Origin: Candidatus Puniceispirillum sp.
GTDB taxonomy: Bacteria > Pseudomonadota > Alphaproteobacteria > Caedimonadales > UBA1908
Reading direction: 5' to 3'
DNA: 64,000 bases
NCBI GenBank assembly: GCA_013822015.1
Contig: PNJU01000002.1
Location: 128,500 to 192,499 of the forward strand
Positions 695-35,889 of the stretch are shown in pieces. The notes under the pieces are model-generated. The model made no database searches. It was given only the letters and a program-made list of their open reading frames with translations, and had not been told where the DNA came from. How positions within the stretch are numbered: position 1 is the first letter of the stretch; the number at the start of each line of letters is the position of its first letter. The translations under genes and the position numbers were made by a program.

Positions 695-928
695 AAGACA
701 AGCGGTTTTTCCAAAACCACTCACCCTGGGGGCCTTTTGACTGCGTTACCCGCACAGCAAAGCGTGGCTGCTCAGGCAGGTCTCCTGGCTCACACGTCAT
801 CATTTTCTTGGGCCTTCCCGGGAGAGGCTCCCCCAGTGGCTGTGCACACGCACCCCAAGAAAACTCGGTGTCTACAGTTACGGGAATAGCCGCGATTGGT
901 AAGGTTTTCCTTACACCGCGTTCCCTCT
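695..928 (-). promoter_or_regulatory. Cobalamin (B12) riboswitch in the 5' leader of the TonB-dependent receptor
   Basis: The reverse complement contains the conserved blocks GGGAACGCGGTG, GCGGCTATTCCCGTAACTGTA, GCCACTGGGGGAGCCTCTCCCGGGAAGGCC and the B12 box GAGCCAGGAGACCTGCC (plus coordinates 775-790). A GGTTTTGGAAAACC hairpin follows, just before the RBS and ATG at 681. Boundaries are approximate. Confidence 0.85.
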
Positions 929-1126
929 TCAGGCCTTTTGGGGCCCTATACCATCTTCTGGTACCTGAGCGAGCTCGATAATGGGAGTGTCGTCCTCATC
1001 TGTCAAGGGGGCTTGACTGGCACGCTGGCGTGCCTGATCTTTCCGCTTGCGCAAGTTTGCGCGCAGAGCCGCCGCCAAACGCTCTTCTTTGAGTTGTTTT
1101 AAATCTTTTTTGGGCTTTGTGGTCAT
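929..1126 (-). CDS. Small basic/acidic hypothetical protein (65 aa)
   Basis: Internal ATG of ORF 929..1282, chosen because the longer form overlaps tRNA-Thr. Sequence begins MTTKPKKDLKQLKEERLAAALRANLRKRKDQARQR... No family recognised. Confidence 0.4.
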   Translation of the reverse strand: MTTKPKKDLKQLKEERLAAALRANLRKRKDQARQRASQAPLTDEDDTPIIELAQVPEDGIGPQKA

Positions 1127-28380: not shown

Positions 28381-29892
28381 TTGATAAAAACAAACAAAGA
28401 GCATTTTTCGCTCAAGCATATTATTTCAAAGCTACAAAAACACGCTCGACGGCAACACGCGTCCCTGAGTGAGCAGCATCATTTCTTTTCCCAAACGCTG
28501 TTACTGACCAAACAGACGCTCCCCTTTCGCCCGCGCACGCTCTTCTTAGCGGCTGTGTTTCTTGCGGTGGGCTGCTTCACTGTGTTCGCAATCCAATACA
28601 AAGTTGATATGCGTGCGGAAAGCCTCGCGCGCCAACACCAGGCGCAGCAAGCCTATGACGCTTTTGCAACGCGTGTCGACGCACATCTGCGCTTTGCCGC
28701 AAAGGTATATGATCACAAAAAAACATCTGACTCTAAAGGCGCTGTCTGGCTGGCACTCCACAGGCTCACCGCGTACCCTATGACTCTTATCAAGGGACAA
28801 GAACCTGACAGCGTTACTTTTGGTCCACAAGGCCTTCTATTCAAAAAAGCCCTCGGTGAAAATATGGGCACCTTGAGCATCCACGTTTCTTATGCAGAGC
28901 TTGCGCAAAAGCTCTCAGTCCCCCACATTTCCACCTCAACGGACAAAGGGCACATCCAGACGGCGGCTGGCACACTCTATTTCCCTGACAACACCCCATC
29001 CTTTTTGGCTGATTTCGCGAACGCAAAGTTCCCCCGCGCCTTCATGACACTCTTGGAGATCTATGGCGCCGCGTTTTTAACCCTCATAACCTATACACTT
29101 TTAGTCTCACGAGGGCGAAAAAGTGTAAGCTGTGAACTTGCATCATTGCATAACAAAGTGACGAATCTCACGGCCCACTCCCAAGATTTAGAAGAGGAGA
29201 TCACCACGCTCAAAGTGCGCTTAGCGATGAAGGCGCGCGCTGACAATGCCCTAACAGCGCTGCAGAAAAAACACGTGCAACGAGGGATGCAAAACCGCAA
29301 GCATGCATCGTCTCTTTGCGCCCTGCTCCAGCACGTCCTAAGGGCAGAGACGCTCTCGCCAGACGCCACGGAGCTTCTAAGCAAAATAAAGCTCACACTC
29401 CAAGAGGGGCACGATGCTTTTACAGTGTCGGCGCCTGCCAACATTGACCCCTCCCACACACTGGCAAGGGTGCAGCACATCCTGTCTCCATTCATGGCGC
29501 GCAGTCGGCTTGTGTGGGAGTGTCATGTGGAAGAAGGTTTTTTCTCAATGACAACGGACCCATATCTGTTTGAAATTTTCCTCCTTTTGATGTGCAAGGA
29601 TATGCTCAGCTTTGCCTATCCGCATAGCGTTCTACGAATCATGCCACATAGCAATGGGCTCACAGTTACACTGCACGGAGAAAGGGTAGTCGCAAAGCGC
29701 ACTTTTGCCGATGAAGCCATTGACCTTGGCTTCATATGCTTTTCGCGCACAAGTCTTCCAAAACTTGCCAGCGCCCTGCATATGCAACTTTCGCACAACA
29801 ATACACATATCACGCTGACATTTCTCGACCCCGCAAAGTCCACCCAAGACGCGCATCTTTCCCATGACAACGTTGTCCCTCTTTTTGCGTAA
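28381..29892 (+). CDS. Membrane protein with periplasmic loop, coiled coil and a histidine-kinase-like but degenerate C-terminal region
   Basis: TTG start (uncertain). TM segments near aa 54-74 and 236-256. A DHp-like region NRKHASSLCALLQHVL, then an ATPase-like region LFEIFLLLMCKDMLSFA...LTVTLHGE without clear N/G1/G2 boxes. Confidence 0.55.
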   Translation: MIKTNKEHFSLKHIISKLQKHARRQHASLSEQHHFFSQTLLLTKQTLPFRPRTLFLAAVFLAVGCFTVFAIQYKVDMRAESLARQHQAQQAYDAFATRVDAHLRFAAKVYDHKKTSDSKGAVWLALHRLTAYPMTLIKGQEPDSVTFGPQGLLFKKALGENMGTLSIHVSYAELAQKLSVPHISTSTDKGHIQTAAGTLYFPDNTPSFLADFANAKFPRAFMTLLEIYGAAFLTLITYTLLVSRGRKSVSCELASLHNKVTNLTAHSQDLEEEITTLKVRLAMKARADNALTALQKKHVQRGMQNRKHASSLCALLQHVLRAETLSPDATELLSKIKLTLQEGHDAFTVSAPANIDPSHTLARVQHILSPFMARSRLVWECHVEEGFFSMTTDPYLFEIFLLLMCKDMLSFAYPHSVLRIMPHSNGLTVTLHGERVVAKRTFADEAIDLGFICFSRTSLPKLASALHMQLSHNNTHITLTFLDPAKSTQDAHLSHDNVVPLFA

Positions 29893-32146
29893 CCTCTTAC
29901 TTTTTCTAACGATAGTGTGCTGCGATGTTTCAGCCTCTAAACCCCAGCCGGCCCTGTGGAATGTGCCAGTAAGTCATTGTTCTTTTTGGGGTAGAAAGGC
30001 AGAACTGCTTACGCTAGAACAAAAAATACAAAAGGGTCCTGTGGTGGTCACAGGCCTATCTGGCATGGGGAAATCACGTCTTGTTTTCACCTATGCCAAA
30101 AAACACGCACACAAATACCGCGTCGTCTGGGTCTTTGATGCGTCGAATACACAAGGGATGGATAATCAAATGATTGACTTTGCAAACAAACTCTATGCAC
30201 TCGAACACAAAGGAAAGGAAGGCACCTTTTCGAAGAAAAATGAAGCCACTCACTATGTAAAAACCTTACTGCGCACATGCGCTTTCTCGTGGCTTTTGAT
30301 TTTTGATGGAGCGTCAAGTTTCGCCTCAGCCACCGGCGCGCTGCCTGAAATCTTCGACCAACGGAATAAACATTCTATTGTGGCAAGCACTTCTTCTGCT
30401 GGCGCCCCTCAAGTCCTTGAGGTCGGCCCCCTTGACGATGTAAGCGCCCTTTCTCTGCTAAAAGAAGGCCTCCCCGATTACAAAGATGAAGACCTCCAAG
30501 ACCTTGCACGCGCCCTTGAAAACCACCCCCTGGCACTGAACCAAGCCGTGTCCTACATCAAGCTTGCGCCTAGCATGGATCCACAAAAGTACATCACACT
30601 CTTCAATGATAAGGTGGCGCTCTGGTCATCTGAGGCCCAAGCGCTTCAAGGTCAAGTGACTCTCCACACAGCCCTGAAAATACACCTTGAAGATCTCACA
30701 GCAGAAGATCCCACAAGCCTCCAATCATTGTGTTTCTTTGCAATGATCGATACACACAATATCACTCAACCCCTGATTGATGGATGGTATGAAAAGAGTC
30801 AAAACACCAATGCCTCGGCCTTTGGGCAGCTCACCAGCCGCTCACTCTTAACCACAGGCGAAGATGGTGCCTATACCATGCAGGGTTACCTGCGCTGCGT
30901 TATCCTCCACGTCGCTGATGAAACAACGAAACGCACAGCTGCAACCACTGCCACGAAGCTTTTTGCCGAATTTTTCTCGGACAAAATTGCCGATTGCGTA
31001 GAGGACTTCCAAAAGAATCCAGGGCTTTTTAACCACGCAAGAAGCCTTTTTGACCATGCGGATTTCATGCCAGCAGAGAGCGCCTTTCACCTTGGCATGA
31101 GGCTCCTTCACTACTCAGAGCGCAACAATCGTGACTTTGAGTTTGCGGTCCCACAGCGCGCAAAGCTGAAAGAGCTCTTTGACGCGCAAGATGTCAAAGA
31201 CCACATGGCTGCAGGTCTTTTCTACACCAACTATGGATGCACTGTTTTAACCGGCGGCACAGTGGATGACTCCCTGCGCGAATTTGAAAAGGCCTACGCC
31301 GCTTTCAAAGCTGCAGACCCAAAAGAAGCACGTCTGGAGCTTGCATCCTTGCTTCTTAATGAGCTTGGTTTCTTCACCCATTGGAAGGCAGACTCCCAAA
31401 AGGTGCGGGCATATCTTGATGAAGCACATGCACTCATTGGAGACGATGCCCCAGATTATTTGCGCACATCTCAGCATGAATTGGAGGCTGTATTTGAGCA
31501 GGATCAGGGGCATCACGAAAGGGCACTTGCTGTTCTGGACAAAAGCGCACCCCTTTTTGCTCAAAACGAAGACTTACGTACATCTTGCTGGCCGTTCTCC
31601 GCGTCCTTGAAGGCGTGCTCTCTGGTGAAGCTGGAGCGTTACGAAGAGGCGCGCACGCTGTGCAATAAGGCCATTGAGGTTGCCATCAAGCACGCAGACG
31701 GCAACGCCGAAGATGACCAAGTTGGGCGCATTCGCGTTTATCTCTCCCAGGCACAAAGCGGTTTGGGTGATTACGTAAACGCTGAAGCGAACGCACGCAG
31801 CGCCATTGATATTATTGATGGGTGTTACGGTGAAGGTGTGATTCGTCGCCAAGGTGTTGCCTATATGGCCTTGGGGGACGCCCTCAAAGGACAAGGAAAG
31901 CGGATGGAAGCAGCCGCCGCCTACCAGAGCGCCAGAGACATCTTCGAGAAAATCTCAGCCCACGTGAACTTTGACGACATGAGTGAGCTCCTTGCCAAAA
32001 TGTACGCCCTTGGTTTGGGGCAACAAGATACGCCTGAGGGGCAGCTTCTCATGATGAACGCACTGGGTGCCCACCAGGGTATTTTCGACAAGGAACATCC
32101 CCGCTTTGTGAAAATGGTTTCCCTAAGCATAGACCCTGCCGCTTAA
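29864..32146 (+). CDS. NB-ARC (STAND) NTPase with C-terminal TPR repeats and a hydrophobic N-terminal segment
   Basis: FWGRKAELLTLEQKI...VVVTGLSGMGKSRLVFTYAKK (P-loop)...WLLIFDGASS (Walker B)...LEVGPLDDVSALSLL...LENHPLALNQAVSYI. C-terminal TPR-like units (GVAYMALGDALKGQGKRMEAAAAYQSARDIFEKI). Overlaps the upstream gene by 29 nt. An alternative downstream GTG start would remove the hydrophobic segment. Confidence 0.8.
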   Translation: MTTLSLFLRNLLLFLTIVCCDVSASKPQPALWNVPVSHCSFWGRKAELLTLEQKIQKGPVVVTGLSGMGKSRLVFTYAKKHAHKYRVVWVFDASNTQGMDNQMIDFANKLYALEHKGKEGTFSKKNEATHYVKTLLRTCAFSWLLIFDGASSFASATGALPEIFDQRNKHSIVASTSSAGAPQVLEVGPLDDVSALSLLKEGLPDYKDEDLQDLARALENHPLALNQAVSYIKLAPSMDPQKYITLFNDKVALWSSEAQALQGQVTLHTALKIHLEDLTAEDPTSLQSLCFFAMIDTHNITQPLIDGWYEKSQNTNASAFGQLTSRSLLTTGEDGAYTMQGYLRCVILHVADETTKRTAATTATKLFAEFFSDKIADCVEDFQKNPGLFNHARSLFDHADFMPAESAFHLGMRLLHYSERNNRDFEFAVPQRAKLKELFDAQDVKDHMAAGLFYTNYGCTVLTGGTVDDSLREFEKAYAAFKAADPKEARLELASLLLNELGFFTHWKADSQKVRAYLDEAHALIGDDAPDYLRTSQHELEAVFEQDQGHHERALAVLDKSAPLFAQNEDLRTSCWPFSASLKACSLVKLERYEEARTLCNKAIEVAIKHADGNAEDDQVGRIRVYLSQAQSGLGDYVNAEANARSAIDIIDGCYGEGVIRRQGVAYMALGDALKGQGKRMEAAAAYQSARDIFEKISAHVNFDDMSELLAKMYALGLGQQDTPEGQLLMMNALGAHQGIFDKEHPRFVKMVSLSIDPAA

Positions 32147-32297
32147 CGCTGCCTTGCCCTCTTCCGCCACGCGCGGTGGAGGGCTTTGCTTACCGTAGCC
32201 CGCTCCCAAAGCAAGATTGCTCACACCACGTCTTCGTGCTTGACCTCCTTTGGGATATCTCGTATGCACGATCATCCCTTTGACGAAGAGTCCGACC

Positions 32298-32702
32298 ATG
32301 ACAAACATTGTTTTAAACTTGCCACGCAAACTGAGAAAAAGCATCCAGCATAACGCAGCATTATCACGGATTTCATGCGAAGCCTTTGTCACCAAGATGT
32401 TGGAAAAAAACATTATTCCAGCGGAACAGGTGCGCCCACACCTGGTGGAGAGAGGTCTTTTAAAACTCAAAGCTTTTCTTGAACGTATTCCAGGTGTGCA
32501 CGTCATCAGTTTTGACCAAAACCATGAGAGTTTTTGGTGGATCAAGTTTGATATCGACATCACCCACCCCCTTGCGTGGCAAGTTGTGCAGGAATTAGGC
32601 TTTGTCCTCAACTACATATCCATTAGCCAACAATTGCCTACTGTGTTCATGCCCGTATCTCCTCCCCCATACCTCAATGGTGGACCAGAAGACTATAGCT
32701 AG
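32298..32702 (+). CDS. Hypothetical protein with an RHH/antitoxin-like N-terminus; its stop codon lies inside repeat copy B
   Basis: Internal ATG. MTNIVLNLPRKLRKSIQHNAALSRISCEAFVTKMLEK resembles a ribbon-helix-helix. The terminal codons TAT AGC TAG belong to the repeat. Confidence 0.5.
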   Translation: MTNIVLNLPRKLRKSIQHNAALSRISCEAFVTKMLEKNIIPAEQVRPHLVERGLLKLKAFLERIPGVHVISFDQNHESFWWIKFDIDITHPLAWQVVQELGFVLNYISISQQLPTVFMPVSPPPYLNGGPEDYS

Positions 32703-32800
32703 AACAGTTTAATGTGATAACAGGATACGAGGAAAGCGACGTGTATAAGTATACACGAGCGGCGAGTGACGCATTATCAAATTATAATGGTTCGGCTATA
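32694..32800. repeat. 107 bp palindromic MITE/RPE-like element, copy B
   Basis: See copy A. The right half, about 52 nt, is identical between the copies. Confidence 0.85.
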
Positions 32801-32825
32801 TTTGTCTTGGGTGATTGAATCAAAG

Positions 32826-33062
32826 CTACCCTGCACTGACCCCCACCTCATTGCACAAATCCTTGAAGGCAGGCTGCCCTCTCCTGTCGAAGATCCCGTA
32901 AGCTGGCAGGACAGTGATGGCGATGGGGAAGAGGCGGCCGAAGACAACAGCGTCTGTGAGCACACACAAGATAAGAGCCAGGACACTCATGCCGCCAAGA
33001 GCAAGGAAGATAAGGAGAGTCGCAACACCGACATAAATGTGAGCACAACCCATGAACAACAC
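32826..33062 (-). CDS. Possible small two-TM membrane protein (alternative: the plus-strand ORF 32766..33119 is real instead)
   Basis: MLFMGCAHIYVGVATLLIFLALGGMSVLALILCVLTDAVVFGRLFPIAITVL looks like genuine TM helices. It is the exact antisense frame of an acidic plus-strand ORF, so one of the two is an artefact. Confidence 0.3.
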   Translation of the reverse strand: MLFMGCAHIYVGVATLLIFLALGGMSVLALILCVLTDAVVFGRLFPIAITVLPAYGIFDRRGQPAFKDLCNEVGVSAG

Positions 33063-33259
33063 TGTGTGTCGTTTTTGTCCCGCCGCTTTCTAACGCGGGT
33101 GGATCCAGGGAGTGTGTAACAAATCGCAGGTATTGCAATGGGATACGACTCAGGGCAGGAACTGGTCATAGGTCGTTATCAAGAAGGCACCTTTGTGCAA
33201 AATCTGCCTGATGGCGACGCCCAGTGGTAGCCAGATGCCACCAAGCTCTCCCAAAAGAC

Positions 33260-35813: not shown

Positions 35814-35889
35814 TGGTGCCGGATGACGGATTCGAACCGCCGACCCACTGATTACAAATCAGTTGCTCTACCAGCTGAGCTAATCCGGC
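35814..35889 (-). tRNA. tRNA-Thr (anticodon UGU)
   Basis: The reverse complement GCCGGATTAGCTCAGCTGGTAGAGCA-ACTGA-TTTGTAA-TCAGT-GGGTC-GGCGGTTCGAATCCGTC-ATCCGGCACCA folds as a canonical cloverleaf. Confidence 0.95.

Follow-up and report, generated by a model that had tools for sequence, protein, structure and literature searches.

A putative pseudo-kinase membrane sensor and an overlapping STAND NTPase gene with a predicted export signal form a conserved pair in obligate-intracellular Alphaproteobacteria

We describe a pair of overlapping genes carried by a 64,000-nt stretch of DNA (the window, in what follows) from a metagenome-assembled genome (MAG) that NCBI labels 'Candidatus Puniceispirillum sp.'. 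The first gene encodes a membrane protein, pHK, that has a histidine-kinase fold according to structural modelling and is, judging from its motifs, a catalytically dead pseudo-kinase. The second encodes a protein, called STAND below, that appears to be a divergent NB-ARC-type STAND NTPase with tetratricopeptide repeats (TPRs) and that starts with a predicted Sec signal peptide. The two genes make up a conserved module that is confined to the mobile elements of obligate-intracellular Alphaproteobacteria (Caedimonadales and Rickettsiales). Our tentative preference is to see in it an envelope sensing pair resembling ExoR and ExoS, whose two partners would come together on the periplasmic side of the inner membrane. 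Coordinates are window positions, on the plus strand unless noted, and labels beginning with L and P denote our loci and proteins. The gene positions, protein lengths and overlap agree with those of a first-pass annotation made from the sequence:

28381..29892, plus strand: pHK gene, 503 aa, TTG start, NCBI C0514_02100 (identical NCBI protein P0001)
29864..32146, plus strand: STAND gene, 760 aa, ATG start, NCBI C0514_02105 (called there as 701 aa)
29864..29892, plus strand: gene overlap of 29 nt, without a Shine-Dalgarno sequence upstream of the STAND ATG

Results

The STAND protein carries a predicted Sec signal peptide

29864..29938, plus strand: predicted Sec signal peptide, residues 1-24/25, with n-region MTTLSLFLR, h-region NLLLFLTIVCC and c-region DVSA/S

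The STAND N-terminus had first been noted as a hydrophobic segment and the pair as possibly membrane-associated. The segment is indeed present, but mere membrane association does not describe it well, since in a rule-based scan of 15 N-termini of the STAND family all 15 display the n/h/c layout of a Sec signal peptide. The n-regions hold one to five positive charges within their first 5–10 residues (15/15), the h-region is a hydrophobic core of 11–15 aa in 13 of the 15 proteins, and the residues at −3 and −1 are small in every case (VSA, AQA, AFA, VFA, LCA etc.), lying 3–5 residues before the conserved LWNVP; the early mature region is neutral or acidic. This pattern extends to solo STAND paralogues and to distant Rickettsiales relatives (L023, L024). 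Two other types of signal were considered. A Tat signal fits less well than Sec, as only 3 of the 15 N-termini contain RR, and for a lipoprotein signal a Cys is frequent near the end of the h-region, with no consistent lipobox. These features predict a Sec signal peptide that is cleaved off, as opposed to an anchor of 20 residues, and an exported NTPase, which the membrane would separate from the pseudo-kinase domain. Once mature, the protein would consist of a bare NTPase-TPR part and have no effector domain.

The STAND protein is related to NB-ARC-type NTPases

29984..30901, plus strand: NB-ARC-like NTPase module (FxSxx_TPR match, AfsR profile alignment)
30053-30076, plus strand: Walker A, GLSGMGKS (G64, G67, G69, K70)
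30293-30307, plus strand: Walker B, LLIFD (D148)
30524-30538, plus strand: HPLAL (GxP-like), conserved in the family
30881-30886, plus strand: MHD-equivalent position, residues 340-341, Q-G in the window copy and H-D in the family
31061..32098, plus strand: helical/TPR C-terminal region, TPR_12 at residues 587-650

Residues 35-306 of the STAND protein match the NB-ARC part of the NCBIfam family FxSxx_TPR (NF040586) with an E-value of 2e-39; the match is partial in length and scores 135.6 bits, compared with a curated equivalog cutoff of 300. The family profile also aligns to AfsR, from Walker B through hPLAL to hHD, and to kinesin-light-chain TPRs. Because of the NF040586 match and the AfsR alignment we place the protein in the NB-ARC clade, in keeping with the initial description of an NB-ARC-like NTPase with C-terminal TPRs and no effector domain. 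The motifs listed at that stage (GLSGMGKS, LLIFDGA and HPLALNQAVSYI) were all found again, and across 11 STAND sequences conservation reaches 90% or more at G64, G67, G69, K70 and D148. Pfam yields weak P-loop/STAND matches (AAA_16, AAA_22, nSTAND) and TPR_12 with an E-value of 7e-9. TPR_12 is found in 11/11 family members and TPR_MalT in 8/11. The Pfam NB-ARC model itself (PF00931) has no match in the window protein at E up to 1; it matches one of the 11 family members (E 1e-3), and the Rickettsiales relatives score 21–22 bits against it, with a cutoff of 23.5. No effector domain was found in the STAND protein.

In plant NLR (nucleotide-binding leucine-rich repeat) proteins, changes in the MHD motif often alter nucleotide-dependent autoinhibition. 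At this position the family motif IHDYVRDV aligns with FHDLVR of AfsR, and the window copy reads MQGYLRCV, with loss of the His-Asp pair.

Two alternative starts had to be considered. NCBI begins the protein at V60 (701 aa), and an in-frame GTG at 29963 corresponds to V34, within WNVP. The hydrophobic N-terminus and a P-x-LWNVP..FWGRK block are conserved in homologues of 39–53% identity. Since the first 59 residues are conserved in kind, the family alignment backs the ATG at 29864 and not the GTG, and the NCBI call is, by this comparison, too short.

A connection with Avs-like antiphage systems had been raised at first. It is not borne out: in PADLOC-DB 2.0 no family matches pHK or STAND at E up to 1, and a role in antiphage defence is not supported.

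pHK has the predicted fold of a histidine kinase and lacks its catalytic motifs

28537..28593, plus strand: transmembrane segment TM1, residues 53-71 by hydropathy scan, after a basic N-terminus (10 K/R in 52 residues)
28594..29049, plus strand: predicted periplasmic domain, residues 72-223 (152 aa), mixed alpha/beta in the AlphaFold 2 (AF2) model
29050..29106, plus strand: transmembrane segment TM2, residues 224-242, with basic SRGRKS directly after
29107..29403, plus strand: signalling helix/coiled coil and short DHp-like hairpin, residues 243-341 (AF2, Foldseek)
29404..29835, plus strand: CA-like domain of the Bergerat fold, residues 342-485, N, G1 and G2 boxes absent
29836..29889, plus strand: linker and conserved C-terminal tail, tail at 29869-29889, with pLDDT (AF2 per-residue confidence) <50 at residues 486-501

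Two transmembrane segments flanking an extracytoplasmic loop of about 160 aa had been proposed for pHK, and the hydropathy scan recovers them, with a loop of 152 aa. Hydropathy and charge counts give an N-in/C-in topology, both termini being predicted cytoplasmic. We prefer the TTG start to M77 because TM1 occurs in members of the pHK family.

This family is small and divergent. Word-indexed homologue searches, the alignment query included, returned only pHK itself and a fragment from a sister strain (MAG CAED1, GCA_020161545.1, 88–90% identical to the window at the DNA level). An exhaustive HMMER search among 1.84 billion cluster representatives gave nine relatives, and four further ones were obtained from loci reached through the neighbouring STAND gene. 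Identity to the window protein is 82% for the sister-strain fragment and 15–27% for the other relatives, which keep the whole layout. The periplasmic domain is the fastest-diverging part of the family; the order of its secondary-structure elements, and that order solely, suggests a PDC/Cache-like fold.

Used as a single sequence and as a four-sequence profile, pHK had no meaningful match in Pfam, NCBIfam, PADLOC or the PDB sequences. In particular, neither HisKA nor HATPase_c was detected at E up to 10 in four pHK members, nor in the NCBIfam and PDB sequence searches. At the level of the fold, the DHp-plus-catalytic-domain layout first proposed for the protein is real in the model. AlphaFold reached a pLDDT of 75.7 with nine homologues (only 36 with the single sequence) and built TM1, a long helix and an alpha/beta extracytoplasmic domain, followed by a single helix (217-322) that contains TM2, a helix 327-341 completing a hairpin, and an alpha/beta domain. 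The top 50 Foldseek matches in the PDB are all histidine-kinase DHp+CA cores (E 8e-7 to 3e-5, probability 1.00), among them AdeS, ZraS, HK853, CusS, CpxA, KinB, RetS (6dk8/6dk7/7n0e) and DivL (4q20). The modelled structure thus points to a histidine-kinase fold.

We then looked at the catalytic residues. The DHp-like region holds two histidines, H308 (NRKH) and H318 (LLQH), neither of which is conserved family-wide. H308, the His of the NRKHASSL motif noted earlier, is found only in the window and the sister strain. Shared by the window, P0002, P0018-20 and L004, H318 (LLxH) is missing in six members (L015, L017, P0021, P0022, P0024, P0025). The CA-like domain has family motifs of its own (DPxLxELFLLxxxKD, IDLGF), and at the places of the N, G1 and G2 boxes the consensus reads LLxxxKD, xxGxxV and IDLGF, with about 15 residues at the place of the ATP lid; this register was read off the alignment and leans besides on a single hhalign anchor (start of CA) to a genuine histidine kinase, which is not significant. 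The absence of the ATP-binding Asn, G1 and G2 boxes had been remarked on before, and it agrees with the lack of any HATPase_c match. Without a conserved phospho-acceptor His and without N, G1 and G2 boxes, pHK is, on motif grounds, best described as a catalytically dead pseudo-kinase. Aligning the pHK family with a genuine histidine kinase by hhalign did no better than shuffled controls. No response regulator with a REC domain flanks the pair in the window; on plasmids, a gene for an XRE-type helix-turn-helix protein stands where a response regulator might be expected.

The pHK C-terminal tail is conserved and overlaps the STAND start

The most conserved part of pHK is its C-terminal tail, N-[VI]-[VI]-P-L-F-A-COOH, which reads N-V-V-P-L-F-A-COOH in the window and is present in 12 of 13 full-length family members; the first-pass annotation does not mention it. 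In overlapping pairs the nucleotides of the tail also encode the STAND start and an Arg of its n-region, and this dual coding must add to the constraint on them. The codons of the tail nevertheless vary synonymously between loci, and the tail is kept both at L017, which has no gene overlap, and at L020, which has no STAND gene downstream; for these two reasons the tail is, at least in part, under selection at the protein level.

The overlap is 29 nt in the window, L008, L004, L022 and L023, 23 nt in L015 and L021, and 40 nt in L024. L017 is the sole non-overlapping pair, with a gap of 59 nt and with Shine-Dalgarno-like GAGG/AAGG. We infer that translation of pHK and STAND is coupled across the 29-nt overlap. 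A possible end of the operon lies shortly downstream, where the position of a hairpin is suggestive; such sites are not more numerous in the region than expected by chance, so its position is all that speaks for it:

32160..32183, plus strand: terminator-like hairpin, 14 nt past the STAND stop

The pair recurs in other genomes and on plasmid-like contigs

Eight of the nine pHK genes with a readable downstream context are followed by a STAND gene, usually with an overlap of 23–29 nt. The expectation that the two genes co-occur elsewhere therefore holds as a tendency and not as an obligation, since each gene also has solo copies. L004, L005 and L014 belong to one plasmid-like contig with ParAB, RepA and an F-type tra operon, on which (at L004) a 486-aa pHK overlaps a 751-aa STAND protein by 29 nt. 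Indeed, on the plasmid-like contigs the pair lies between RepA/ParAB and the F-type tra operon (TraE/K/B/C), with a divergent XRE gene nearby. Further pairs are found at L015 (23-nt overlap), at L021, which is the second module of a 74-kb contig bearing two tandem modules, and at L022, where the STAND signal peptide comes right before the contig end. The exception is L020, a solo pHK gene: the XRE gene normally located after the pair here comes immediately behind pHK, with its 184-aa neighbour kept. Open reading frames (ORFs) of 173-184 aa adjoin the XRE gene on the plasmid-like contigs (L004 8571-9122; L017 3452-3973 and 9100-9642; L020 8327-8881); they have no Pfam match, and the L017 copies loosely recall LuxI-type acyl-homoserine-lactone synthases, without any model being matched.

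In a tblastn search of PLSDB, plasmids of Rickettsiales bacterium Ac37b and Candidatus Megaira proved to encode STAND relatives of 21–28% identity. Every one of these starts with a segment resembling a signal peptide and is preceded by a two-TM protein of 470–500 aa without a Pfam match, whose gene overlaps the STAND gene by 29 or 40 nt; a divergent XRE gene comes afterwards, the same XRE as on the plasmid-like contigs of the pair. Neither hhalign nor a hidden Markov model of 10 pHK sequences related these upstream proteins to pHK better than shuffled controls, so the conservation of the upstream gene in Rickettsiales is architectural only. On the Ac37b plasmid (L023 7341-8624) a 427-aa TPR-only protein is encoded between the STAND and XRE genes, and genes for SPINDLY-type TPR glycosyltransferases lie upstream of the module.

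STAND genes are also multiplied within genomes, with at least three copies in the MAG of the window and at least four in the 1.88-Mb sister MAG. P0004, P0008 and P0018, the last being one of the pHK members with H318, are paralogues from the MAG of the window. CAED1 has at least four chromosomal loci (five copies) of the 750-aa STAND family, and in one of them (L009 3-3620) two paralogues stand in direct tandem, about 10 nt apart, with no pHK gene between them. The window ORF 13921-15945 (minus strand), a TPR gene located beside the gene for the sheath of a type VI secretion system (T6SS), where L007 has a STAND paralogue, was considered as a further copy and proved not to be a paralogue.

Both genes are under purifying selection

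Compared with the sister strain, the ratio of nonsynonymous to synonymous substitution rates (dN/dS) is 0.145 for STAND (0.12 in its TPR region), 0.39 for pHK and 0.09–0.27 for neighbouring genes. Purifying selection on both indicates that both genes are real, and pHK evolves faster than its partner. In CAED1 an insertion sequence (IS) of about 1.3 kb interrupts pHK after codon 436; it encodes a DDE_Tnp_1/DUF772 transposase and has terminal inverted repeats GAACACCTCTAA and a short target duplication.

L002 2336-3652, L001 5720-5860 and L008 1-114: IS in the CAED1 pHK gene, at the equivalent of window 29686/29687

The resulting synteny break at window 29687 was rejected as evidence against the pairing: it is the IS insertion, and the other flank, with the pHK tail and the STAND gene, continues on another CAED1 contig.

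Discussion

A possible envelope sensing pair or a possible secreted effector

The source organism is most likely a protist endosymbiont, in view of the placement of CAED1 and of the gene content (T6SS, an ankyrin protein, tra-plasmid relatives). CAED1, recovered from a phosphorus-removal bioreactor, has 1.88 Mb and is assigned by GTDB to the Caedimonadales, family UBA1908 (PMC9723799), and the characterised members of Caedimonadaceae/Holosporineae are obligate protist symbionts (PMC11909080). The genus label Puniceispirillum is probably wrong, as this close relative sits in the Caedimonadales (UBA1908).

In the reading that we put first, without great confidence, the pair works like ExoR and ExoS at the envelope. 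If the signal peptide works, topology leaves the periplasmic face of the inner membrane as the only meeting place of the two proteins. The STAND NTPase-TPR protein would be exported to the periplasm and would bind there, as an exported repeat protein, the extracytoplasmic domain of pHK, as ExoR binds ExoS. Without any phosphotransfer, pHK would pass the state of this complex on to the other side of the membrane, and its DHp/CA scaffold and C-terminal docking tail may recruit a cytoplasmic partner; on plasmids, the divergent XRE regulator after the pair is a candidate output. Nucleotide switching outside the cytoplasm would be feasible with host ATP traversing the periplasm: in this lineage host nucleotides are imported by dedicated transporters and should therefore cross this compartment, which makes an extracytoplasmic NTPase conceivable. 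A nucleotide transporter of a Caedibacter species figures among the works cited in PMC11909080.

The likeness to ExoR-ExoS(-ChvI), the invasion switch of Rhizobiales, is one of organisation, and we know no working analogue that comes closer. ExoR, which combines a signal peptide with Sel1 repeats, is exported and attaches to the periplasmic domain of ExoS; ExoS consists of a TM segment (48-67), a periplasmic part (68-278), a second TM segment and the kinase, nearly the topology of pHK (PMC4550343). Both systems are alphaproteobacterial and both combine a signal-peptide helical-repeat protein with a sensor of the order TM, periplasmic domain of about 150–210 aa, TM, histidine-kinase core. In contrast to pHK, ExoS has kinase activity and works with ChvI as its response regulator; unlike STAND, ExoR has no NTPase domain, and the exoR and exoS genes do not overlap. 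We detected no sequence similarity of the pair to ExoR or ExoS, and no Sel1 or HisKA matches. A second precedent for a periplasmic repeat protein with a signal peptide is RARP-1 of Rickettsia, discussed below.

Several points weigh against this reading. The signal peptide is called by rule, and both localisation and interaction are predictions. P-loop NTPases outside the cytoplasm are very unusual, and the Walker motifs therefore fit a protein of the host cytosol as well. The conserved cytoplasmic tail of pHK resembles a TPR ligand, which would favour a cytoplasmic meeting place. In the window copy the His-Asp of the MHD-equivalent position reads Gln-Gly. Pairing is not obligatory, with one solo pHK (L020) and at least four solo STAND paralogues (L006/L010/L013; L007, beside T6SS genes; L016; the L009 tandem), and the window pair has no XRE neighbour. 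Finally, in the sister strain pHK is split by the IS, with the STAND gene intact downstream (91% identity).

Nearly as likely as the envelope sensing pair, and like it only a possibility, is an effector reading, with the STAND-TPR protein secreted and aimed at the host. It would leave by Sec export, traverse the outer membrane and work in the host cytosol, which is rich in ATP, binding host proteins by way of its TPRs or disturbing host NLR-like machinery; pHK would then be a co-expressed regulator or accessory and not a stoichiometric partner. The signal peptide in all 15 members, which the solo copies retain, is consistent with this, as are the conserved Walker motifs, which imply an ATP-containing compartment, the family expansion (at least three and at least four copies in the two MAGs) typical of effector families, and the ankyrin-repeat and T6SS genes nearby. 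Orientia proteins with TPRs and Sec signals are likewise viewed as putative effectors (PMC10732058). However, no outer-membrane route was identified, and the comparable RARP-1 of Rickettsia, a signal-peptide repeat protein long assumed to be secreted, is periplasmic (10.1101/2022.02.23.481736). The effector reading also leaves unexplained why the gene overlap with a membrane sensor is conserved across two bacterial orders, and the dN/dS of 0.12 in the TPR region reflects strong purifying selection, not the diversifying selection often seen at host interfaces.

It is unlikely, in our estimation, that the STAND protein is an extracytoplasmic NLR-like switch that, in the periplasm of an energy-parasitic endosymbiont, cycles on host ATP/ADP and reports host state or a TPR-bound ligand inward through pHK as transducer. 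If true, this would be a signalling logic undescribed for STAND proteins or for two-component-type sensors.

The conserved tail raises a further alternative, in which the STAND N-terminus is an uncleaved tether and the NTPase stays in the cytoplasm, its TPRs docking on the pHK tail, so as to give a sensor-controlled switch acting in regulation or in plasmid conflict/defence. Docking would neatly explain why the most conserved part of pHK ends a disordered linker. TPRs commonly bind extended or C-terminal peptides, the C-terminal pentapeptides of chemoreceptors tether CheR and CheB, effector-less STAND proteins often use the product of a neighbouring gene, and ATP would be available in the cytoplasm. 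However, the charge distribution of the N-termini, their short h-regions (11–15 aa in 13/15) and their small −1/−3 residues argue for cleavage with the mature part outside, no PADLOC defence model is matched, and the conservation of the tail may partly stem from dual coding with the STAND start. We regard the tether as quite improbable.

We give somewhat less credence again to the pair and its XRE gene being a control region of conjugative plasmids or integrative and conjugative elements that would sense conditions in the envelope or the host and license transfer or replication, the window copy being the relic of an integrated element. This reading would account for the location of the pair between RepA/ParAB and the tra operon, in the company of a divergent XRE gene and of a gene for a conserved protein some 180 aa long, for the same XRE on Rickettsiales plasmids and for the solo pHK (L020) that keeps its XRE and 184-aa neighbours. 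Against it, the window and other chromosomal copies have no XRE and tra neighbours, and position alone is no proof of regulation. As it concerns the output, it is compatible with an envelope sensing pair.

That the adjacency has no functional meaning, the two being fast-evolving mobile-element genes that travel together and are possibly decaying, might draw on the IS in the sister-strain pHK, the transposable element just downstream in the window, the solo copies of both genes and the relaxed constraint on pHK (dN/dS 0.39), but is very improbable given that order and overlap are kept at 16–27% pHK identity and into another order, that both genes are under purifying selection and that their ORFs are intact.

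Relation to known systems

RetS and DivL are recognised by the HisKA/HATPase_c models, and their partners are kinases or response regulators. Like pHK, they use the DHp+CA fold as a scaffold rather than for classical His autophosphorylation; unlike them, pHK escapes the Pfam models, its ATP-lid region is much shorter and it ends with a conserved tail. The best sequence relatives of STAND are AfsR and FxsT (NF040586), with which the P-loop, Walker B (hhhhD-N/G), hPLAL and hHD align, followed by TPRs. AfsR differs in being cytoplasmic and in having an N-terminal SARP DNA-binding domain at the position of the STAND signal peptide, and FxsT in being part of a gene cluster resembling those for ribosomally synthesised and post-translationally modified peptides (RiPP-like). 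Avs/AVAST and bacterial NACHT defence proteins share with STAND the NTPase, a C-terminal repeat sensor and a frequent location on mobile elements; STAND is set apart by the lack of a PADLOC match and of an effector domain, by the predicted export signal and by its intracellular-symbiont hosts.

The genomic setting has a parallel in the cargo of RAGE elements and plasmids of Rickettsiales, which includes genes for degraded HATPase_c proteins ('HK/MRP') and for TPR proteins, some with Sec signals (PMC10732058). As with the pair, these histidine-kinase-like and TPR genes are on F-type tra elements of obligate intracellular Alphaproteobacteria, the likeness established being one of setting. A periplasmic NACHT domain has been predicted in a target protein of a diversity-generating retroelement in Thiohalocapsa (10.1101/2023.09.22.558884), so that the idea of a periplasmic STAND NTPase is not wholly unprecedented. 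That protein resembles STAND in this predicted location; it differs in combining NACHT with a C-type lectin, in being placed by TM helices, in belonging to a diversity-generating system without a histidine-kinase-like partner and in coming from a free-living multicellular bacterium.

Our literature searches found no description of the pHK-STAND pair, and Pfam, NCBIfam and PADLOC contain neither family. Each of the two components falls within a known superfamily; what is new is their combination, the family-wide predicted export signal and the putative kinase-dead transducer with its conserved tail. The usual view of STAND/NLR-type NTPases is that they act as switches in the cytoplasm, and of histidine-kinase folds that they catalyse phosphotransfer. 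The module appears to break both expectations, with an export-signal STAND protein whose nucleotide-binding motifs are intact and a kinase-dead membrane sensor. Host-sensing and effector repertoires of Caedimonadales and Rickettsiales symbionts are little charted, and the pair, either as envelope sensor or as secreted NLR-like effector, is a concrete and testable candidate for host-symbiont communication. In addition, two protein families absent from current domain libraries are defined here, and the public annotation of the STAND gene start is corrected.

Other features of the window

Besides the pair, the window encodes an ankyrin-repeat protein and a T6SS sheath in which VipA and VipB are fused. 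The T6SS of Holosporineae is non-standard according to a review, and at L007 a solo STAND paralogue lies directly beside the VipA-VipB fusion.

16391-18286, plus strand (and L007 3086-4981, minus strand): T6SS sheath gene, VipA-VipB as a single 631-aa fusion (T6SS_VipA + VipB + VipB_2)
758-983, minus strand: cobalamin riboswitch, Rfam RF00174, 92 bits
1186-1260 (Thr), 9491-9575 (Leu) and 35814-35889 (Thr): tRNA genes
11594-13600, plus strand: gene for a 668-aa protein with an MCP signalling domain and a C-terminal PilZ domain, a fusion uncommon for a reduced genome

The transposable element downstream of the pair resembles a miniature inverted-repeat transposable element (MITE). It is about 102 bp long, has imperfect terminal inverted repeats and an internal palindrome (GTGTATAAGTATACAC), and occurs at 32696-32797, with a second copy at 13678-13784 and another at L006 7694-7790. 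At 32696-32797 it splits a gene whose product has a ribbon-helix-helix-like N-terminus (ORFs 32250-32702 and 32766-33119), and which is one continuous ORF in the sister strain (L008).

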